Below, piece by piece: positions 21,591 to 59,550 of a stretch of DNA of 64,000 nt (its first letter is position 1; each line of letters opens with the position of its first letter). Position numbers and translations under genes: made by a program. Origin of the DNA: Octopus vulgaris (taxonomy: Eukaryota); NCBI GenBank assembly GCA_951406725.2, contig OX597822.1:6696001-6760000 (forward strand). Direction: 5' to 3'. The notes beneath the pieces were generated by a model. The model was not told the DNA's origin. It worked only from the letters and a program-made list of their open reading frames with translations, and did not search any database.

Positions 21591-22750
21591 ATACAATGTG
21601 GTTCAATGGAAACATGAAATCGGCTCAAATTAGAAGCATTGAGGATCAATATTTGACCGTTAGGTGAGACATCGTAAATGAGTGAGAATGAAACGAAAAT
21701 ACCTGTCAGTGACTAAATAAACTTAAGTGATTAATATAAGGATATGTGGACATATTGTACACACCACATGTCACGTACATAGAACTGTCCGTAGTACATA
21801 ATCAATGTATGTTATTCGAAACCAGAAGAATTAAGATTTAAGTATGAAGAAGGAAGTGCTGGACTCCAGCACTGTGTTTAGAGAGATGTTTAAAAAAACT
21901 TTGCTGTTTGAAAGTATATAGCTTGAAATATCGAATATTAATCCGATGGAAATATTTCTGTCATCCAGAATCAAAGGGAATACTTGCAGACTGATTTCAT
22001 GTATTCAAATCGTTTTAAAATCATATTCACCAAGTAAAAACGTTCTACTAATGCAAATACATACTTCATCCATACAAATTAACGGAAAATCACTGATTCA
22101 AGAAAACATTTTAACCCATCTTTTGCAATGAGCTCAAAAATACAATCACAAACTAACGTGTCTTATAAAATGGTTATTCCCGATATTTACAATAGCGATG
22201 AAAACTAACGTTGATTTTGGGACCCGTAGTGATTGTTTAAGATTAATAATTTATATTCGCTCATGTAGATTCATTAAACACTGACACATATGTTGAGAAT
22301 GGGCAAATTGCAGAGTTAGTCACGTGCACATTAATAATCTGAACATTACTTTCAAAGGATGCGATGTAATAACTAATACAATTAGAAAATATAGAAGCAG
22401 TTCTTAAGTAAAATGAACAGAGCGAAAGTAATTCCTTACTTTGTGATATGAAACTATTGCTAAGCTAATAGTGTATGCATTTCGGAAAAAAAAGTTCAAT
22501 ATTCAACTCCGAGGAACCTGGTTCATAAATGAAAATAGATATATAGATAATAAATTTCTGAACGAGATATAAACACTAACTGCACGACAATATGAGGTAT
22601 ACTTGCCATCTCAACATGGCTAACCGCTAAGGGTGGGTGTTACTGTAGCTTGTAGCCCCAGGAGAACATCGTCTCCAGCTGGATTGAGGCACACTTTCTG
22701 TGTCCTTATGGTATTTGCAAAGGGAGGTCATGCCTCCCTCGTCAACCCAA

Positions 22751-22809
22751 GTGATACGCACGGACTGCAGTTTCTAGGTATTTACCTGTCTTCAGCATAC
22801 GTCAATCAC
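22751..22809 (-). ncRNA. type I hammerhead ribozyme
   Basis: exact reverse complement of 23074-23132. Confidence 0.85.
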
Positions 22810-23073
22810 CGGTTTTCGATGAAGGGAGTCCCAATGCAAATCATTATATATCGTTTTTCCAGTAACTTTTCGTTACAAGCTACAGTAACACCCACCCTTA
22901 GCGGTTGGCCATATTGAGATGGCAAGTATACTCCATATTGTCGTGCAGTTACTGCTTATATCTCGTTCAGAGATTTATTATTGCTTGCAGACAGTTTTTT
23001 GAGATCAGTGACGAAAAATTACTGGAAAAACCATATAAGGATTTGCATTGGGACTCCCTTTCATCGAAAACCG

Positions 23074-23132
23074 GTGATTGACGTATGCTGAAGACAGGTA
23101 AATACCTAGAAACTGCAGTCCGTGCGTATCAC
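23074..23132 (+). ncRNA. type I hammerhead ribozyme
   Basis: helix I GUGAU-ug-ACGUAUG/CGUGCGU-AUCAC, core CUGAAGA, helix II AGGU-aaau-ACCU, GAAA, palindromic helix III ACUGCAGU, GUC cleavage triplet at 23118-23120. Confidence 0.85.
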
Positions 23133-23414
23133 TTAGGTTGACGAGGGAGGGGTGACCTCCCTTTGAAAATACCATAAAGGCACATAAAGTGTGCCTAAAG
23201 CCAGCTGGAGACGATGTTCTCCTGGGGCTACAAGCTACAGTAACACCCACCCTTAGCGGTTAGCCATATTGAGATGGCAAGTATAACCTGATATATAGAT
23301 AGAAAAACAGAAATAACCTGTGTGTTTGTATCTGGGTATTTTTATATTTATGCAACTATATATGTATATATGCAGAGAGTGCAATTATGCAAGTAGATAT
23401 GTATGTGTTATGTA

Positions 23415-43624: not shown

Positions 43625-44070
43625 ATTACGGATGCAAAAGTAAAAAAATGTGGTAGATCGAACTGTGCAACATGTCCAAACCTACTAGAAGGATCAGAAT
43701 TCCTCTTTAAAGAGGGACGGATATTCAAGATCAAATCTAACTTTATTTGTGCCTCTGAAAAACATAATTTATGTCATAAAATGCTCGGGCTGCCACCAAG
43801 ACTACGTGGGATCCACGGGACTATCACTCAGACGTAGATGCACACTGCATCGACAACAGATTGCATTCCCAGAATACAGAATGATACCTTTTAGTGAGCA
43901 CATTGAGAAATGCGCAAAGCAACTACTACCACAATTTTTAATCTTTCCATTTTACCAATGTGCTATCGGATCATCAACACAAATTAGACTAAACAAGGAA
44001 ACATTCTTCATTGAAAAGTACAAGCCCAGACTTAACCATGCCAACATACTGATACAAAGAAATTCACACC
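43625..44070 (+). pseudogene. Penelope-like Cys linker + GIY-YIG endonuclease fragment
   Basis: KCGRSNCATC, NIIYVIKCSGCHQDYVGST..R..H..E.FFIEKYKPRLN; near-identical to 48288-48733. Confidence 0.9.
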
Positions 44071-46702
44071 GAGGTATTGTTTGGCGTCTGTGGCCTTGTA
44101 AAAAATGTCTGTTTCTATTTTAAGGTTAATTTCTTTAATTAGTATATCCAAGAACGGGAGCTCCTTTTGGTTGTATTCCATTGTGAACTGTATATTTGGA
44201 TTTATGCTGTTCAATAGGTTTTTAAATTTTAGGAGTTTATCTGTGTTTTCATTCCAGAGTATGAAACAATCGTCTAAGAATCGTTTCCAATTCTCTTTTA
44301 TGTATTGAGAAAGGGGGTTTCCAAAGATTGATAAAGATTCCTGGTAAATGATTATTTCCATGTAGCCCATTGTTAGGTTCGCAATGACTGGTGCTGCCCT
44401 TGTACCCATAGCAATTCCGGATTTTTGACGGTAAAATGTATTGTCAAACATGAAGTGGTTATTATGTAGGATGAATTCAATTGATTTAGTAATGAATTCT
44501 TTACTGATCCTTTTTGGTATTTCTTCCGGAAATTGGTCCAGCCAGAACTGTATTGCCTCTAGTCCATAATTATGAGGTATACTGGTATATAAGTTAACTA
44601 CATCAAATGAAACCAGGATTGTTTCTGCCTTGGCTTTTTTTTGGAAGGTGGTTTAACATATCTAAGTCATCTCTGATATGGCTATCGATATGTTTAAGGA
44701 AGGGTTTCAGGAGGATGTCCATAAATAGACTTAGTCTGTGTGTTTCACAGGTTGGGCCAGCTACAATGGGTCGTAGTTTTAGGTCCCCCGGGTTAGGTTT
44801 GTGTATGTATGTCTTTGGTGATTTTTTAATGGTTTCATTTATAATTTGGCTTTTATGAGTTTTTGGCAGACCATAGAAAAGGCTAGATTTGCATTTAAAG
44901 TTTGTTAGAAAGTCAATCTCTTTGGTTGTTAGTTTCTTTTCATGGGTTTTAATTAGTGAAGTTTTCATTATTTTTTGTGGGGTGTAGTTGGTAATTTTTT
45001 CATAATGTAGGTCGTCATCAAGCAAGGAAATTACAAGATTTCTATAGTATGATGTATCCATTATTACAACTGCATTTCCCTTGTCTGCTTCCTTAATGGT
45101 TATATCCTCATCATTTTGAAGTTCCATTAGTTCTTTCCATTGTTTAGTGTTAAAATTTGAGTTAACTTTCTGTTTATGTATAGTATGGTAGGGAAAGTTC
45201 TCAATGTGGTTACAGAATTCATCAAGATCTGTATTTCCTCCTCTGTGTGGGATGTGTTCACTTTTGTTCTTGACTAGTGATTCATCTTCAGTATTGAAAC
45301 TGGTTGATGCTTCTGCCAGTCTTAATTTTCTGCAAAATTCTGTTATATTATCCTTGGTTTCATTTAGGTTGGCTCTGCGTGGAGTTGGTGTAAATTTGAG
45401 CCCTTTTGAGAGGATGTCAATTTTTATGTTAGAAAGAGGTTTGGTTGAAAGATTGATTATCTTCGGTTTTTCCTTATTACTAGGTTCCAGCCTGTGTCCT
45501 GGTGTCTCTGGTCCCTCGCTAAAAAATGTTGGGTGTAATTTTGTTTGTATGAGATGTCTGTGAGGTTGTGTGATATTGGGTCGGGGGAATGGTGGTATTG
45601 TTGCCCCCGATCGTTGTGTGTGTGTGGGAATCTATGGTTGTTTTTGTTTGTGGTGTGTGTAAAATTTCTGTATGTGAAATATTTTTGTTTCGAACTGCTT
45701 GTATGTGGGATGTTGCTTGACATAGTGTTTTTTTGCGTTTGTCTTGTGTTCAGTGGGGACCAGTAATTTTGGTTCATGGGATAGTAGCGACTTGTGTGTT
45801 GTGTATTTCTTATTCTAGTGTCGTTTTGTGCTGTATGGTGGTTGGGTCTGGTATTAGGATGTTGTTGGTGTGTTCTGTTTTTGGTGTAATTTATTTCATA
45901 GACTCGTCGTCTGTCAGCTAGTTCCCTGTTGGGTCTTGCGTGGTTTGCAAAGGTTGGTTGTGGGTGATTTCTGTTTTTAGTGTATGGAGGATAGTTGGGG
46001 GTTGTTCGTGGGTTGTTTGGTGTTTCTTTTTTATTTTTTATAATTTTCTTAAGGAAGGGATTATTTGTACCCAATTCATTTTTGATTGTTGAACTATATT
46101 TTTGGAAGAAATCGATGTTTTTCTCCCAGCGCAGGAGAGAATTTCTCTTCTTTTTCACAGGTATCGTTCCAATGATCTAATGTATTTTCGAGGGGTTGTC
46201 CCTCGGTATGTTTTTGTATTATATTGTGCATCTCCTCGTCGATGCTTTTAAATTTTTCCTCATTTGTGGAGGCCCTTAGTCTTAGAAGCTCTATTTCTGA
46301 TCTTAAATTGAACAGAGCTGACTTTTCCCTAATAGTTCTCTGTCCGTCAGGTTCGTTAGGGATTAATTTTATCTGGAATTTGCGTGGAAGGATAATTGGT
46401 GTTGAGTTCATACATCCCACGTATATATCTGTTTTGTTGGAATTTTTTATCATGTTCCAGAAGGCGAGTTTTCTATTGTGCAGGTTTGTATTCCAAATGT
46501 TTCCTATTTTTCTTTTTGCTGGGTTAATTTGGGTGCGTATGATGTCCTGCTGTGTTTCATTTGGTGTGTGTTTTTTATTTTTGGATTTGTTGATGAAAAT
46601 TGAATTTAGTGTTGTGTATAACAGTTGCAGATCCTTACTAACCTGGTCAGTGTAGCGAGTTGTATCTTCACTGCTTTTACTTTCCCGGGCGATTAGGTTT
46701 GA
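44071..46702 (-). pseudogene. Penelope-like ORF N-terminus + RT, frameshifted, 3'-truncated
   Basis: ILSKGLKFTPTP, IKEADKGNAVVIMD, FYGLPKTHK, LRPIVAG, SFDVVNLYTSI, GIAMGTRAAP, RFLDD, LPFLD. Confidence 0.92.
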
Positions 46703-46918: not shown

Positions 46919-48756
46919 ATGCCACAGAAGACCAACACCTCGGATAAAACTACAAATGAGGACATACTCAAAGAACTGAAAAGTATCAATACACAGCTCA
47001 TTACCCTGAACAACAAAATCGAGGAATCAAACCTACTCGCCCGGGAAAGTAAAAGCAGTGAAGATACAACTCGCTACACTGACCAGGATAGTAAGGATCT
47101 GCAACTGTTATACACAACACTAAATTCAATTTTCATCAACAAATCCAAAAATAAAACTACGACTCATTGTAGCTGGCCCAACCTGTGAAACACACAGACT
47201 AAGTCTATTTATGGACATCCTCCTGAAACCCTTCCTTAAACATATCGATAGCCATATCAGAGATGACTTAGATATGTTAAACCACCTTCCAAAAAAAGCC
47301 AAGGCAGAAACAATCCTGGTTTCATTTGATGTAGTTAACTTATATACCAGTATACCTCATAATTATGGACTAGAGGCAATACAGTTCTGGCTGGACCAAT
47401 TTCCGGAAGAAATACCAAAAAGGATCAGTAAAGAATTCATTACTAAATCAATTGAATTCATCCTACATAATAACCACTTCATGTTTGACAATACATTTTA
47501 CCGTCAAAAATCCGGAATTGCTATGGGTACAAGGGCAGCACCAGTCATTGCGAACCTAACAATGGGCTACATGGAAATAATCATTTACCAGGAATCTTTA
47601 TCAATCTTTGGAAACCCCCTTTCTCAATACATAAAAGAGAATTGGAAACGATTCTTAGACGATTGTTTCATACTCTGGAATGAAAACACAGATAAACTCC
47701 TAAAATTTAAAAACCTATTGAACAGCATAAATCCAAATATACAGTTCACAATGGAATACAACCAAAAGGAGCTCCCGTTCTTGGATATACTAATTAAAAA
47801 TATTAACCTTAAAATAGAAACAGACATTTTTTACAAAGCCACAGACGCCAAACAATACCTTCTTTTTAATTCATGCCACCCAAGACACACTAAAACAAAC
47901 ATCCCCTTCAACCTTGCAAGAAGGATATGCACAATAGTGTCAGAACAAAATACCTGGAACTTTAGACTGCAAGAACTCAAAAACACCCTGATTGACAGAT
48001 ATTACCCAGCTCAACTCATAGAGGATGGGATCAGACGTGCAACAGAAATCAACATAGAAACTTTAAGAAAAGTTCAACACAACAACACACCTTCCCCGAA
48101 AATACTACCTTACATATCTACATACAACCCCAGAAACAAAGAAGCCTTCACCATCATCACCCAGAATTTACCAATACGTCATAAGGACCCCAAATTAAAG
48201 GAAATTCTAAACACACCAAATCATTAAAAGCTACAAACAACCTAAATCACTTAAAAAGATTCTCACAAAGGCAAAATTTTTTTCTGGAATTACGGATGCA
48301 AAAGTAAAAAAATGTGGTAGATCGAACTATGCAACAGGTCCAAACCTACTAGAAGAATCAGAATTCCTCCTTAAAGAGGGTGAGAAATTCAAGATTAAAT
48401 CTAACTTTACTTGTGCCTCTGAAAACATAATTTATGTCATAAAATGCTCGGGCTGCCACCAAGACTACGTGGGATCCACGGGACTATCACTCAGACGTAG
48501 ATGCACACTGCATCGACAACAGATTGCATTCCCAGAATACAGAATGATACCTTTTAGTGAGCACATTGAGAAATGCGCAAAGCAACTACTACCACAATTT
48601 TTAATCTTTCCATTTTACCAATGTGCTATCGGATCATCAACACAAATTAGACTAAACTAGGAAACATTCTTCATTGAAAAGTACAGGCCCAGACTTAACC
48701 ATGCCAACATACTGATACAGAGAAATTCACACCAAGGGAAAGGAAAAATAATTTAA
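46919..48756 (+). pseudogene. Penelope-like RT + GIY-YIG ORF with ~1.8 kb internal deletion and stops
   Basis: ATG 46919 (MPQKTNT), deletion junction ~47155, 338-aa RT ORF 47211-48227, GIY-YIG to TAA at 48756. Confidence 0.92.
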
Positions 48757-48904: not shown

Positions 48905-49018
48905 CTAAACTATGTCATTGTAAGGAAAAAAAAATTTAATATTCTTCAGACATATTGACGCAAATATATATATTTTTTAACCTTTAAGCCTTCTGTAGTT
49001 TTTTCACTTTTTACTACT

Positions 49019-49075
<57 letters not shown>

Positions 49076-50020
49076 CTTGAATATCTGGTGAATACGGAGG
49101 GTGGGGTAACACATCCCAGCCGAGCTGCAGCAACTTTTGTCTGGTTCCAAAAGAAACGTGCGGTCTTGCATTCTCATGTTGGAAAACAACACCCTTCCTG
49201 TTGGCCAATTCTTGACGTTTCTTTTGAATTACTGTTTTTAACTAGTCCAGTTTTGTGCAGTATTTCTCAGAATTAATTGTCTGATTACTTGGGGGGAGCT
49301 CATAGTACAGAATTCCTTTCCAATACCACCAGACACAAAGCAAGACTTTTTCACGGTGAAGAAACCGCTTTTGGGGTGGCTAAGGGTGGCTCGTGTCACT
49401 TACTCCAGGATTACTTTCTCTGAACATTTCGGCAGATAATCCATTTCTCATCACCTGTCACAATTTGCTTTAAAAAAGGCGCATTTTCATTCCGTTTATA
49501 AAGCGAATCACAGATGGAAATACCTCCGAAAGTTTCTTTTCATTCAACTCATGTGGTATCCAAACATTGTAGAGATTTGTGTACCAGGTGCTCATGAACA
49601 ACGGATTTTTATAGGTTGAGGCTTTCTGCGAATTCTCGGGTTGTGCAATGTGGGTTATTCTCAATTAATGAATTGATTTGGTCATCATCTGTAGTGGATG
49701 GTCTCCCTGATCACTCTTAATCAAGAAGGCTACAATATCCAGCTTGGAACGTTGCGAACCGCTTCCGTGCAGTTCTTTCGGATAAAGAAACATCACCGTA
49801 AGCTGCGCATATTTCTTTGGTTGCTTGTGAGGCATTTTATACTTTACGGAAAAAGAAAAGCATCAAGTGCCGAAAATGAACTTTCTTATCCCCCTTTTTA
49901 ATCAGTTACAGAATTAACACAGGTTATAGGCAGATAAACCTTCTTTCACGAAAAGATAGCTTAATCTGTGCTCTAATTGGAGGTGTAGTCAATTCCTATT
50001 TTATGGACTCAACTATGTTC
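49076..50020 (-). mobile_element. mariner element, 3'-truncated and degraded
   Basis: WIPHEL, VTGDEKW, NRKGVVFQHENARPH..WDVLPHPPYSPDI. Confidence 0.88.
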
Positions 50021-50078
50021 TAAGAGATGGTGGGGGTACAAACACAGACACAGACACATACAGACACACATATATATT

Positions 50079-50112
<34 letters not shown>

Positions 50113-50255
50113 AATATATATAGATATATACACACATATATATACATTTATATATATATATATTTTTTAATCCAAACGGGAAAACAAAAAAACAACAACA
50201 GTGGAACAATTACAGTATTATTATTAATAGGCGCTCAGGAAATGGAAGCAGGAAG

Positions 50256-50290
50256 GTATGACGTTTCGAGCGGAGCTCTTCGTTTGAAAC
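50256..50290 (-). ncRNA. minimal hammerhead, core mutated
   Basis: minus strand GUUU-CAAACGA-A-GAGC-ucc-GCUC-GAAACGUC-AUAC. Confidence 0.6.
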
Positions 50291-53045
50291 ATAAAGAAAG
50301 AAGAGAGAGGAAAGAAAGATCCCAAAGCGGGCAACAGGAGATGGAGAAAAAAACGACTGGTGTCTACGAAGTACACATGGTGAAAGGCGGAAGTTTACGA
50401 TAACAAGAGCAAAGTAGGTTTTTAAAGCCAAAAGAGTGGAGACAGGGTTGGTAACGCAACAGATGTGTGTGTATGTGTGAGTGTGTGCGTGTGCGTGTGT
50501 GTATGTGTGTGTGAGGCGAGATAAAAAACAAAAAATATATGTATGTGTTAGTGTGTGCGTCTGTGTGTAGGCGTGTGAGGTAGGGCGAGACAGTAGTAGG
50601 CATAGCAGACAGTGATCAGTAGTAAGAAAATGAAGGAAGGAGGAAGGGAGGGAGGGGAAGGGGTGGGGGCGTATGTAGCGTGCCAGCGTGTGTTGAGTAG
50701 TAGTGTGTGTGTGTCCAGTGTCGTGGTAGTATTAATGGCGAGTAGATTGAATGTGTGTAAGGGTAATGTATATATTTAAGCAATGTGTGTGTGTGAGTGG
50801 GTGTGTATATGTGTGCGCGTGTGTGTAACAAAAAGGGGGGGGTTAAGGAAAAAGGACTCCAGCTGGGGGGAAGATGGAAGAGTGGTCCCGCGGAGACGGG
50901 CGTGGGAGAACCCAACGACAAGCGACGGTCCCAGGAACGAGCGGGAAGTCTCGTCGGGTCCAAGAGCGAGGTGCATGCAGCGCGTATGCGTGCGCGAACC
51001 GGCGCAAGCGCGTGTGTGCGCGCGCCTGCGAGTATGCGCGTAAGTATGTATGTGTGTGGATGTGTGAGTGTGTCTGTGTGTATGTCTGGGTGTCAGTGTG
51101 TCCGGTGAATGTATCCGTGTGTGTGTGTGTGTGTATGTGTATGAGTGTGTATGTATGTACGTGTGGGTGTGTGGAAGTGTGTGTATGTGCATGTGTGTGC
51201 GCGTACATACAGGTGTGTGAGTGAGTGTGTGTGTGTATGTATGTGTGAGTGTGTATGTATGTGTGTGTAGGATGCATGTATGTGTATGGGTGTATGTATG
51301 TGTGTGTGTATGTATGTATGTGTACGTGCGTGTGTGTGTGTGTATGCGTGTAGGTGTGCGCGTGTGCATGCATGCATGCATGTGCGTATGTGTGTGTGTG
51401 TGCATGTGTGTGGGTATATATGTATGTGCGTACATGTGTGTGTGTGTATGCATGTGTGTGTATGTAGGTGTGTAGGCGTGTGTTTATAGGTGTATGTATG
51501 TAAGTATGTATGGGTGTGTCCGTGTATGTGTGTATGTATGTGTGTGTATGTAGCGTGTGGGCGTGTGTGTATAGGTGTATGTATGTATGTCTGGGTGTGT
51601 CTGTGCATGTTTGTGTGTGTGTGTGTATGCATGTGTATGTAGGTGTGTGTGTACGTGTGTAATGTATGTGTGTATGCGTGTGTGTGCGTGTGTATGCGTG
51701 CGTGTGTGTATGTAGGTGCGTATGTATGTGTGTGGGAGTGTAGGTGTGTGTGTGCGTGTGCGTGTTTATGTTGGTGTGTGCGTATGTGAGTGTGAGTGTA
51801 TGGGTGTTTGTCATGCATGTGTGTGCGCGTGCAGGCGAGTGTGTGTGTAAGTATGTGTGTGTGTATGTTTGTGTGAGTGTGTATGTGTGTATGTCTGTGT
51901 GTATGTATGTGCGTATAGGAGTATGTCGGTATGTGTGTGTATGTGTATGGGTGTATGTATGTATGCGTGTGTGTGTGCATGTGTATGTGTGTGTGTTTAT
52001 GTATGTGTGTGTGTGTGTGTAGGCGTGTGTGTGTAAATGTATGTATGTATGGGTGTGTGTCTGTGTGTGTTTGTGTGTGTGTGTAGGTAGGTGTGTGTGT
52101 CTGAGTGAGGGTATGGCTGTGTAGGTGTGTGTGTGTATGAATGTAAGTGTGTGTGTGTACAAGTGTAATGTATGTATGTAGGTGTGTGTGTGTGTGTATG
52201 TGTACGTGTGCGTGTGTATGTGTGTGTGTGTATGCGTGTGAGTGTGAGTGTATGGGTGTATGTCTGTGTGTGTGTGTGTATGTCTGAAGTAGGTATGTGT
52301 GTGTATGTATGTATGTGTGTGTGTGTGCGGGTATGTGTGTGTGTGTGTGTATGTGTGTGTGAGTAGGTGTGCGTGTATGTATGTGGGTAGGGATGCATGC
52401 GAGTGTGTGGGTATGTATGCATACATACGCACGCACACACCCGAAGCAAGCTCACACACACGAAGCGCGCTCACGCACACAACACACAAGCAATACAACG
52501 CAAGCCAAAGGGGCCGACCAAGCCCCCAGCGCGCGTCAAGGCGCGCGAGCGCAAAGGCCCTCGAACGCCCCGCTACGCGGGAACCGAGGATCCATCAGCC
52601 AAAACCGGAAAGCGGAAAAGAGGGGGGGCGGCTGCCTGGATGCAAAAAGGTGTATGTGTGTGTGCATTCAGTGTAAGGGTGTGCATATGTGGGTATGTAT
52701 GTATGTGTGTGCCTACATGTATGTGTGCATGTGTGTGTGTGTGAAGTAGGTACGTGCGGTGTGTGTGTGTGAGTGTGTGTGTATGTATGTGCGTATGTAT
52801 GTGTGTATGTATGTGTGTATGTATGTCTGTGTGTGTGTGTGTGTGCGTAAGTATGTATGTGTGTGGTGTGTGTGTATGGGTATGGGTGTATGTATGTATG
52901 TGTGCGTGTGCATGTGTATAAGTATATGTGTGTGTGCGTATGTGTGTGTATGTGTATGTGTGTGTGTTTATGTATGTGTGTATGTATGTGTGTAGGCGTG
53001 TGTGTGTAGATGTATGTATGTATGGGTCTGTGTCTGTGTGTGTTT

Positions 53046-53088
<43 letters not shown>

Positions 53089-53192
53089 TATATAGTTAAT
53101 CCAAACAAGAAAACACAAAAAAACACAACAGCGCGAGGACGTGGAACAAATATAGTATTATTGGACGCTCAGGAAAGAAGGGAAGAAGGAGG

Positions 53193-53227
53193 GTTTAACG
53201 TTTCGAGCGGAGCTCTTCGTCAGAAAC
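53193..53227 (-). ncRNA. minimal type I hammerhead ribozyme
   Basis: minus strand GUUU-CUGACGA-A-GAGC-ucc-GCUC-GAAA-CGUU-AAAC; loopless palindromic helix III typical of dimer-active Penelope hammerheads. Confidence 0.75.
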
Positions 53228-53274
53228 ATAGGGGAAGGAAAAATCCAGAGAAGGGAAGACAGAGGAATTGGATC

Positions 53275-53307
<33 letters not shown>

Positions 53308-53310
<3 letters not shown>

Positions 53311-53472
53311 GACGGGCTTCTTTCAGTTTCCGTATACAAAATCCACTCACAAGGCTCTGGTCAGCCAGAGGCTATAGTAGAAGACACTTGCCCAAGGTGC
53401 TACGCAATAGCACTGAACTCGGAGTCTCGTGGTTGGTAAGCAATCTAGTTACCACACAGCCACTCCTGTGCC

Positions 53473-53475
<3 letters not shown>
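53308..53475 (-). mobile_element. CORE-like SINE 5' half
   Basis: reverse-complement match to 24906-25070. Confidence 0.85.
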
Positions 53476-53553
<78 letters not shown>

Positions 53554-53811
53554 CGGAGATGTACTACATAGTAAGTGACTTGATCTGAAATCGTCTGCTG
53601 AAACAAAAACAGGGGCACTCTGGAAGGTGTTTATAAGACATTTAAAAACACACAAAAACCGTTAGATTTACTTCAACATTTAAATTCAACATTTCCTTTG
53701 CCTGTGACGCTACAGAAAGCTAAAGTTTTCCAGTGGCACTGTGCAAATAGATACATACACACATGTACACATTCGTGCCCATGTCTCTATATCTGTGTGT
53801 AAGTATGTATG

Positions 53812-53886
<75 letters not shown>

Positions 53887-54429
53887 GTGTATGTGTGTGT
53901 AATGCATTCACTTTTTGCATAGTGCTACCGGAAAAAATTAGCTTTGTGTAGCGGAAAAGCCTGCTGTCATAATGTTCGCATCATTATGTGAAGTTACAGA
54001 CGATAATAGGATTCGACAGTTTATGTCTTCCACCGAATAGTGTCACCTGGGTCTTAATTGGATCGTATGAAATGCTGTTGAGATGGAAGAACGTTGGAAA
54101 TGAAATAGATTGAAGATACAGTGCAGGACATGCAAAAGAATTATGAAAGACAGAGAATAGGAGCGTCGCCAGAAATATGAAATTTAAGCAGATTTGGCAA
54201 GCAGAAAAAGGTTGGTTGTTCTTTAGGAAACCTGTGTCTATCAGCGCAACAAAATAAGGTATGTGTCAGAAGTTCTAACTGAAACCAGCAGCAACGGCTC
54301 TCTTTGCTGCATGTTAAGGGTTTTTATAGCTGAATCTACCATCGTTTGAAGATAATGAATATGGTGAGAGAGAAACTGCATTTTTGGTCGATCTTCTGAT
54401 AATATCCATAGAGTTTGAAACCACTGGAA

Positions 54430-54539
54430 GGAGCGAAAGGTGATGAAATCATTGTGAACACCAGCTGAGAGTCGATGAAAGGCATGCATTCGCAGGGACT
54501 GTACTACTACTACTACTACTACTACTACTAATACTGCTG

Positions 54540-54605
<66 letters not shown>

Positions 54606-54760
54606 TCAACCCTCCAGTTCGTGACCAGAGCTTTGTCCTGCGCTGCAAGTATAATACTGCAAGTATAATCATGTAGTCCCTTCTTGCGTAATTTTTCTTC
54701 ATGTCCTCCTTGTACTCGTTCCATTGTTTTCCATTTTTCCTTTGCTCTCAATACTACCAA
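54430..54760 (-). mobile_element. R4-like retrotransposon fragment split by (CTA)n
   Basis: KKGLHD..IILAAQDKALVTNW matches the pre-CCHC I.AAQDQAL.TN motif. Confidence 0.6.
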
Positions 54761-54768
54761 CTACTGAA

Positions 54769-54812
<44 letters not shown>

Positions 54813-55297
54813 CGATGGTAGTGATGATAATAATAATAATAATAAATGCCCTGATACAGTGCCATTCACTGACTCTCGTGTGTCAATTCACTGGCTTTAG
54901 AATGTCCAGAAGAACTGTTAGGAAAGGTCTATCCCCTTGACACGGCCTGAATAATCAAGAAAGCATGAAATAGAATGATACCGTAGGCTGCAGGTTGTAA
55001 GCCCACTACGCATGCAAAACTCAAAGAGCTCCAACAAAACCTTCGATAAAGAGATAATAATAATAATGATAATAATAATAACTTTAACCCCTATATGTAT
55101 ATATAATCACCCCCTCCCTCGAATTCAGTCCTCGCTCTCACTTCCTCTCGCTCCCTCTTCTCCCTACACAAAATGGTAGCTGGATGTTAAATATTGTGGA
55201 GGGAGACCCTGTGAGACCCCGTGAGACAATCATTTCTCACGGAATTGACCGGGGTAAATTATATCAGGATCTCTGAGAATTAAAATATGATAACTAT

Positions 55298-57779: not shown

Positions 57780-58942
57780 GAGCAACGCTTTTTGTCTGAT
57801 AACCTAAAATGCATGCCGAAAGAAGTCGCACAAGTCTATTGCAACGTATCATCAGATAAAAACACCAGCCTATACGAGCAGAAGACTATGCATGGATATG
57901 TTAATAGAAAGCTCCGTAATGATCATCAGAGCAGTTTATCATGGACCAATAGCCGGATTACTACCTCTCACTTTGATGGGTATGCGTTTGTAATCCGGGA
58001 ACAGGAAATATCAACCAAATACTTGATATACAAAAGGGATAGCGATGCAGGAAAAGCTATGAAATGTGACAAGCGATGCAGGCTTTTTGGAGTTTACGCT
58101 GAAGATATCACCCACACGATAAGCAGTTGTCCGAAAATGTCAACACGTTATAATCTGCCGATGAGACAGACGTTGTAGATAGGACACTGTATAATGAAAT
58201 CCGTCAGAAGGATAATCTCGGTGACAAAGAATTAAGAACCCACAACATGGTAGAAACCATAGCCACTTATAATACCAAGGAATTCTGGTGGAATGTACCA
58301 GTGAAAACCTCAACAAAATATAATCACAACAGTCCTGATATAATGATTTGAGACAGAAAAGAGAAACTGTGGACTGATGTAGAAATTAGCTGCCCAGCGG
58401 ATGTTAACATAAAACTGAAAATCAGTGAAAAGTAGAACTCCTGTGCTGAACTATCGAGGAAACTGCAGTTACTCTATACAGATTACAAGTTCAGGTTTAT
58501 ACCTGTAATTATTGAAGCCCTGGGATATGTAACACACTGCCTAAATACTACACTTGAGAAATTAGGCTTCTCAAAACCAGAAAGGAGACAGCTAGTTCGA
58601 AGACTCTAGATCCAATCCATCACTGGAACTGTAAAAATCTATAAAACTTTCCAGAAGTTTACCGTTTAAATAAATATGAGCATGCTTAGATATACATAAA
58701 CCATACAAATCTGCACATACATACACACACACATATACATACATACATACATACATACATACATACATACATACATACATACATACATACATACATACAT
58801 ACATACATAGAAACAAAAATACACTGTTTTTGATGTTGAAATTCCAATGTAACCTTCAATCTAGGTTTAGAAACCGGTTCTTTCTCTATTGTCAAGAAAT
58901 CTTGAAATAAACTGAATGATGACCTACCTACCTAACTACCTA
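57780..58942 (+). mobile_element. second RLE-type (R4-like) retrotransposon family, 3' end, in (TACA)n
   Basis: HGY, GYAFVIREQEISTKY, CRLF..EDITHTISSC, FWWN, HNSPDIM, VEISCP, IPVIIEALG; 3' UTR then (CCTA)n(CATA)n. Confidence 0.88.
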
Positions 58943-59172
58943 CATACATACATACATACATACACACACATACATACATACACACACACATACATACATA
59001 CATACATACATACATACATACATACATACATACATACATAGAAACAAAAATACACTGTTTTTGATGTTGAAATTCCAATGTAACCTTCAATCTAGGTTTA
59101 GAAACCGGTTCTTTCTCTATTGGCAAGAAATCTTGAAATAAACTGAATGATGACCTACCTACCTAACTACCT
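58810..59172 (+). repeat. tandem duplication of the ~130-bp 3' terminal segment
   Basis: 58810-58941 vs 59041-59172 differ at about one position; separated by (CATA)n. Confidence 0.92.
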
Positions 59173-59233
59173 ACATACATACATACATACATACATACAT
59201 ACATACATACATACATACATACATACATACATA

Positions 59234-59550
59234 CAGATTACACGTTCAGGTTTATACGTGTAATTATTCGTACAGTGGGATATGCAACATACTGCCTAAA
59301 TGCCAATCTTGAGAAATTAGGCTTCTGAAAGACAGAAAGGAGAAAGGTTGATTTGGAGACTACAGATCCATGCCATCACTGGAACTGTAAAAGTCTGTAA
59401 AACTTTGCAGAGGTTTATCATTTAAGTATATGTAAGCATGTCTAGAGATGGAAGCATGTGTATGGGAATACGTAATTAACACAAAGCACACAAATCTGCA
59501 CTTATATACACATACATACAAAAATACCCTGCTGATGTTGAAATTCCAAT
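59234..59550 (+). mobile_element. diverged 5'-truncated copy of the 57780 family
   Basis: homologous to 58479-58848. Confidence 0.85.

Follow-up and report, generated by a model that had tools for sequence, protein, structure and literature searches.

A GC-rich patch in an Octopus vulgaris Penelope-like retrotransposon is one arm of a family-wide inverted repeat and a candidate scar of ancestral ADAR editing

Results

Host element and neighbouring repeats

The window, i.e. the whole 64 000 nt stretch of Octopus vulgaris DNA analysed herein, harbours a truncated copy of a Penelope-like retrotransposon, the constituents of which are listed in Table 1. The ORF of this element falls outside of the window, and it is from fuller sibling copies, which run on into a same-strand ORF encoding a reverse transcriptase (RT) and a GIY-YIG endonuclease (EN), that its identity can be read. 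For the product of one such ORF (P0001, from L068), the matches to RVT_1 (E 8.5e-4) and GIY-YIG (E 0.011) are both weak and under the Pfam cut-offs; the motifs YIDD and LIYCIKC..C...YVGQT are present, and some of its 20 relatives carry PF00078 and PF01541. The sibling copies accordingly display an RT together with a GIY-YIG domain at the C-terminus in one ORF, which is the arrangement of EN+ Penelope-like elements. The sequence CSRSRCNTC in P0001 forms a C-X4-C-X2-C linker, matching the zinc-finger-like CX2-5CxxC linker between RT and EN that is given as typical of Neptune and Nematis elements in the available text of PMC8557442. A partial-tandem, pseudo-LTR arrangement is seen in L068 and L074, where another 3′ UTR lies immediately upstream of the ORF.

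Table 1. Position and basis of the features assigned to the Penelope-like copy and its immediate surroundings (window coordinates)
Feature	Position	Strand	Basis
Penelope-like retrotransposon, 5′-truncated copy, 3′ UTR only	50168–52930 (end approximate)	−	Colinear with L063, 93–94 %
Minimal hammerhead-ribozyme-like motif, element 3′ end	50256–50292	−	Sequence; core broken (CAAACGA)
Arm 1 of long-range inverted repeat (contains the 50855–51040 island)	50873–51055	−	Aligned to reverse complement of arm 2
Inter-arm spacer, microsatellite-like, (CA)n/(CATA)n	51056–52416	−	Tandem repeat 51044–52385
Non-duplex internal paralogue of block 51001–51051, A-rich state retained	51808–51858	−	In-arm versus out-of-arm comparison
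Arm 2 of inverted repeat (island 2)	52417–52596	−	Best duplex partner of arm 1, three subfamilies
~170 nt insertion, 3′ end of sister (outgroup-type) Penelope family	53097–53267	−	96.5 % to end of L201

The motif at the 3′ end of the element shares descriptor features with the minimal hammerhead motif of Penelope-like elements, as set out in the accessible part of PMC4209133, and has an extra base after A9 and a palindromic ACGU. Its commonest core within the family is CCGACGA (U4 replaced by C) and not CUGANGA, with 165 instances of CCGACGA versus 8 of CTGACGA in fetched loci that were not de-duplicated, and an Rfam scan of 49000–55000 returned no match above the gathering score, hammerhead included. 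The spacer between the arms varies from ~0.3 to 1.6 kb amongst the 25 copies with both arms. A reading of 50165–53275 as a single element with terminal repeats was rejected, as a short insertion, distinct from the element, occupies 53097–53267 and has its own hammerhead-like core, CUGACGA, at 53193–53229; this insertion has 857 first-look candidates, and 29 other fetched copies mostly end within ~30 nt of it. The 5′ end of the window copy (52771–53047) resembles a block within the spacer of L068 and L063 (88–91 %), and a template jump or a duplication may thus have taken place where the copy is truncated.

Two GIY-YIG codon patterns have 1520 and 359 matches genome-wide, and many Penelope-like families coexist in this genome, several of them with (CA)n UTRs that lack the islands. 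Other repeats are also found in the window. The arms of a 581 nt inverted repeat (99 %; 44061–44641 and 47291–47871) overlap RT-coding frames, with ORFs at 44603–45127 (−) and 47211–48227 (+), an RVT_1 match of E 1.8e-7 and an FLDD motif, and probably represent two inverted copies of a different young Penelope-like element. A 229 nt inverted repeat, with 95 % complementary arms 230 nt apart (22598–22826 and 23057–23285), is possibly a MITE-like element, and a tandem repeat at 58715–59235 has a period of 231, 2.3 copies and 95 % matches.

Predicted pairing of the two GC-rich islands

On the plus strand, the island at 50855–51040 consists of 12 % T, 26 % C and 41 % G, with 27 CpG in 186 nt, whilst the TG-rich tract that separates it from a second island has 41 % T and 5 % C; along the element as a whole, C/(T+C) ranges from 0.02 to 0.91. 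The T-poor, C-rich composition of one strand, which formed the basis of the original prediction, is thus real, and the motifs quoted there can be located at 50882–50961 and 51001–51032, with CATGCATGCATG, from a weaker patch at 51355–51390, found at 51367. The further expectation that T+C would stay constant as T/C swings is borne out for the swing, but only roughly for the constancy (21–52 per 100 nt, mean 42).

Although originally described as independent of the other, the island at 50855–51040 is the inverted-repeat partner of 52417–52596. The repeat is ~185 bp long, its two islands lie 1.4 kb apart, and rather than occupying separate duplex regions, as had been proposed, both are predicted to pair as one duplex. 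Alignment of arm 1 with the reverse complement of arm 2, using a scoring scheme that gave no advantage to G·U, yields 187 columns with 111 Watson–Crick pairs, 24 G·U, 6 A×C, 35 other combinations and 11 gaps, and has a score of 84.5 that was reached by none of 500 shuffles (mean 32.6). In each of the subfamilies A1, A3 and B, which are about 72–100 % alike over the islands, no other part of the element is predicted to pair with arm 1 as well as arm 2 does (−101 to −104 kcal/mol, versus a median of −31 to −37). Global folds contain 74–109 arm–arm pairs in L308, L213 and L224, from older subfamilies, but for the window copy and L216 the numbers are only 33 and 37, respectively. From these calculations the arms are predicted to form an RNA duplex in the element transcript.

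A local conserved RNA domain within island 1 alone was also considered and rejected, as its z-scores range from −0.6 to +1.7 (−1.7 for 50828–51045) and its folds differ by subfamily. Arm-specific compensatory covariation was not found: when arms are exchanged between subfamilies, pairing is as good as in the native combinations (89 and 94 versus 86 and 98 of 144 columns), and pairing is retained in 3 of 8 double changes in the arms. A maintained function of the duplex is therefore not supported.

Conservation across copies

A DNA search of the genome assembly (2.8 Gb, and rich in microsatellites) produced 870 first-look candidates, the 40 scored ones being 97–100 % identical. So as to avoid a bias towards island-like copies, a 27-mer from the flank, which has 647 matches, was used instead, and the first 30 of these formed a sample blind to the island. 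Island 1 is spanned by 27 of these, the remaining three being truncated, and all 27 are C-rich: each of the 49 C columns has C as the majority residue, and T occupies just 12 of 1319 cells. The weaker patch at 50560–50620, pointed out in the original prediction, behaves likewise, with eight of eight C columns having a majority of C in 29 copies, and the (CATG)3 run is present in 9 of 13 other copies.

It is against this background that the original prediction, in which this one copy underwent recent hyper-editing, in distinct patches, ahead of its insertion, has to be judged. What speaks for it is the composition itself, with its one-strand T-poor, C-rich bias and many CpGs. Set against its 29 closest copies, however, the window copy displays no private T>C on the plus strand, and hence neither hypermutation relative to family members nor the private A>G cluster expected of an ADAR-hyperedited copy. 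The proposed comparison with unedited family members found no unedited copy: all 74 purine-degenerate pattern matches to island 1 carry ≤1 G>A, as does each of the 100 listed of 291 island-2 matches, a motif with its A residues restored has no matches with three mismatches allowed, and a three-letter (G=A) search of the fetched loci for the unique part in unedited form found none. The C residues of the window copy recur in contigs from runs that bear the labels organism A, B, C and D, the contigs of organism C having a single C>T site at roughly half depth. Private A>G clusters are present in none of 70 aligned island-1 copies, which have at most two private A>G, nor do five regions of young copies (15–72 copies each) contain such a cluster as would betray ongoing editing. 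Recent, copy-specific editing is consequently rejected, and we give it virtually no credence, as the C-rich state is fixed across the family. The intact CpGs, offered as a sign of recency, do not date the event, since CpG decay is weak in this family (14 private transitions at 56 CpG sites versus 12 at 74 other C/G sites). The GC-rich patch is an arm of an inverted repeat common to hundreds of retrotransposon copies.

Origin and substitution pattern of the arms

Searches anchored on the ORF and on the islands allow the subfamilies to be arranged as a ladder. In the ORF tree, for which 26 rows were kept (L311, L328 and L322 being left out), group A, to which the window copy belongs, is nested within a grade B, with A+B support of 100/100; the outgroup, or C-type, copies are placed outside of A+B and are paraphyletic below it, with weaker support of 84–87. 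These C-type copies harbour arm 1 only: none of 12 loci has a match to arm 2, and a single distant partner is absent from all 8 loci searched for one. Family D is without both arms. The reverse complement of arm 2 can be aligned with the arm of C-type copies (an alignment from which the arm 2 row of L304 was removed), which argues that arm 2 arose as an inverted duplicate of the ancestor of arm 1. In the outgroup-type L261–L290, the arm-1 precursor is a ~60 nt G/U-rich patch in the CA tract, and can pair with neighbouring CA repeats. Pattern searches found no intermediate with a perfect, unedited arm 2, and as such a burst of changes is indistinguishable from quick stepwise change.

Substitutions were polarised with the C-type state as start and the B arms as derived, such that the ancestor is approximated by living C-type copies; as initial arm counts for the B rows included ends beyond the arms, inflating A×C, trimmed counts were used. 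On the RNA strand, A>G is found at 32 of 69 sites in the arms versus 15 of 283 outside (46 versus 5 %, p 2e-15). This outside control is partly coding sequence from single copies; by part, A>G is seen at 10/135 sites in the flank, which is the value for non-coding flank alone, at 0/26 in the 3′ end and at 5/122 in the ORF. Other transitions do not differ significantly between inside and outside, as is the case for T>C (14/69 versus 44/289), G>A (3/51 versus 10/160) and C>T (6/51 versus 52/426). The excess persists when only single-arm changes are counted (19/59 versus 15/283, p 6e-8), and recurs in 16 of 16 independent pairwise alignments with symmetric scoring, where 32–41 of 72–77 A residues are changed to G, and 2–4 of 54–58 G residues to A. 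The counts therefore reveal an RNA-strand excess of A>G that is limited to the predicted duplex and affects both arms.

Parsimony places 29 A>G of 72 A residues on the A+B stem, where arm 2 first appears, with 10/32 and 19/40 on the RNA strand of the respective arms. Later branches each have 0–4 A>G and are dominated by T>C (14 and 11), and the arms are still evolving fast, with 43 changes in the arms on the A stem. Along the ladder, G·U pairs fall from 28 to 12, G–C pairs rise from 43 to 49 and mismatches increase from 24 to 40. Independent polarity is provided by the paralogue at 51808–51858, which lies outside of the duplex and keeps A: in the in-arm block at 51001–51051, 10 of 45 sites are different, with 4 of the 15 A residues changed to G, and in out-of-arm paralogues 0–1 sites are.

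Not every C in the island can be traced to such changes. When 33 island C residues at 50857–50989 are compared with the outgroup on the element strand, 12 correspond to A (equivalent to T>C on the plus strand), 11 to G, i.e. the ancestral state, 6 to T and 3 to gaps, with 1 unassigned. The T>C origin originally put forward thus stands for about a third of the traceable C residues, but not for the others; GGTCC at 50957–50961, for example, which was thought to derive from a T run, has an ancestral G where no T run ever existed. Nor is A>G nearly exclusive on the A+B stem, forming 29 of 91 changes on a branch that also experienced ordinary evolution. Values for A>T (12/69 versus 16/283), A>C (7/69 versus 8/283) and G>T (8/51 versus 7/160) are raised in the arms as well, which may partly be alignment error near indels. 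With regard to sequence context, the neighbour preference that had been suggested as a test of ADAR is not shown: A>G occurs at 3/7 sites after G versus 24/57 otherwise (p 1.0; 3/6 in another count), with only 6–7 sites having a 5′ G, and at 19/25 sites after U or A versus 15/27 after C or G (p 0.15).

Discussion

The explanation that we favour, with a probability of roughly 55 %, is that the island is a fixed scar of ADAR editing of the predicted duplex, reverse-transcribed into an ancestral founder element. An inverted duplication would have created a near-perfect duplex in the element transcript, in which ADAR would then have turned ~40–50 % of the A residues into inosine, in one or a few rounds. 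Editing has a ceiling of about half of the A residues in perfect duplexes. The reverse transcriptase of the element would itself have copied these inosines into DNA as G, in an element whose activity persisted since its ORF was spared, and later U>C changes would have turned many of the G·U wobbles into G–C whilst mismatches also built up, leaving islands rich in GC and CpG. ADAR editing of a new duplex would account for the strand, for the involvement of both arms, for the confinement to the duplex and for the timing of the changes. With respect to the chemistry, therefore, the original prediction is likely right for an ancestral event, as A>G is raised in both arms, but not for a recent and copy-specific one. 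Against ADAR, 5′-G avoidance, which is reported across animals as its main signature in the available texts of PMC5625713 and PMC3113232, is not seen in 7 sites, and there is an elevation of A>T, A>C and G>T that is unexpected from pure editing.

Two further accounts of the same pattern have to be weighed. Selection, rather than captured editing, might have fashioned the arms if variants with fewer A residues, or a broken duplex, escaped ADAR, RNAi or dsRNA sensing, such that ordinary mutations of A were fixed fast, with G favoured as it still pairs. This would sit well with the loss of A by all routes (of 64, 27 to G, 10 to T and 6 to C), with the want of a neighbour preference and the growing number of mismatches along the ladder, and with the higher frequency of U>C where the facing residue is G (16/34) than where it is A (4/22; p 0.045). 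It would, however, require ~47 separate A substitutions on a branch with an ORF change of only 0.053 per site, and, although changing the U partner breaks pairs equally, T>C remains at background; the equivalence of swapped and native arms, moreover, makes a fine-tuned structure not evident. By our reasoning, purifying selection alone should not be able to lift a rate above background. On balance, selection seems a rather unlikely source of the pattern.

Quite improbable, in our view, is an error in the polarity or mechanism itself, whereby an older GC-rich duplex lost arm 2 in the C-type and drifted by C>T and G>A, or a hairpin bias of reverse transcription or DNA repair acted without ADAR. 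The weak support of the C-type branches and the armless family D leave room for this, as do 8–11 columns where the arms agree against C, and which could be changes on the C branch. Five of the arm-1 A>G changes are nonetheless unambiguous under any root, and the arm-2 branch has 14 changes of U·G type versus 2 of G·U type, which ought not to be expected if both arms had decayed by C>T. That A is ancestral is additionally shown by the internal paralogue and by the origin from CA repeats, and the C-type copies form a paraphyletic group below A+B.

Returning to ancestral ADAR editing, several known systems display partial similarity. Retroviral hypermutation by ADAR, as described in the accessible portion of PMC8586724 for RAV-1, avian leukosis virus and HTLV-2/STLV-3, shares the carriage of RNA-strand A>G into DNA by reverse transcription; those cases are single hypermutated molecules, whereas here there is a founder lineage with hundreds of copies, mixed changes and no demonstrated 5′-G avoidance. 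In the part of PMC5625713 that is available, octopus tops Table 1 of that study in hyper-editing events, and a lizard Penelope element is heavily edited. The hyper-editing of repeat-derived dsRNA described therein likewise involves inverted repeats within about 2 kb, long duplexes and both arms, but is a transient editing of RNA in animal transcriptomes, whilst the present trace lies in genomic DNA. The APOBEC editing of LTR retrotransposons (PMC4866542 and PMC2873906, from the text available for each) also leaves deaminase scars in genomic copies, as strand-biased clusters relative to their relatives; these are G>A, vertebrate-specific and copy-specific, in contrast to the A>G changes observed here, which are confined to the predicted duplex and fixed in the lineage.

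With regard to the element itself, Neptune- and Nematis-type EN+ Penelope-like elements, as portrayed in the obtainable text of PMC8557442 and PMC4209133, have in common with this family a single RT ORF with C-terminal GIY-YIG, the C-X4-C-X2-C linker, copies in tandem and flanks of (TA)n; their minimal 3′ hammerhead motif has a candidate counterpart here in the hammerhead-like motif. What sets the present family apart is a ~3 kb (CA)n UTR holding a fixed, long-range, A-poor inverted repeat, for which no counterpart was found in those descriptions. Similarly, no report of a lineage-fixed ADAR scar in a Penelope element was found in the literature listings searched, which covered mainly openly accessible papers.

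Captured ADAR edits are usually known as dead-end hypermutated copies. Here, the subfamily series presents states from before the duplex (arm 1 only), just after it (A-poor and rich in G·U) and later (rich in G–C). Whether editing has acted as a heritable mutator, with ADAR-edited RNA founding a lineage of hundreds of copies in several related organisms, and a ratchet from A–U through G·U to G–C building islands rich in GC and CpG from a CA microsatellite, is a proposition that we regard as evenly balanced. For genome scans, a T>C island on one strand may be an old and fixed family trait, and older subfamilies should be compared besides the nearest copies. If editing is indeed the cause, the same A>G asymmetry would be predicted in other young inverted repeats inside retroelements, and RNA editing would here have steered the long-term sequence evolution of a transposon.
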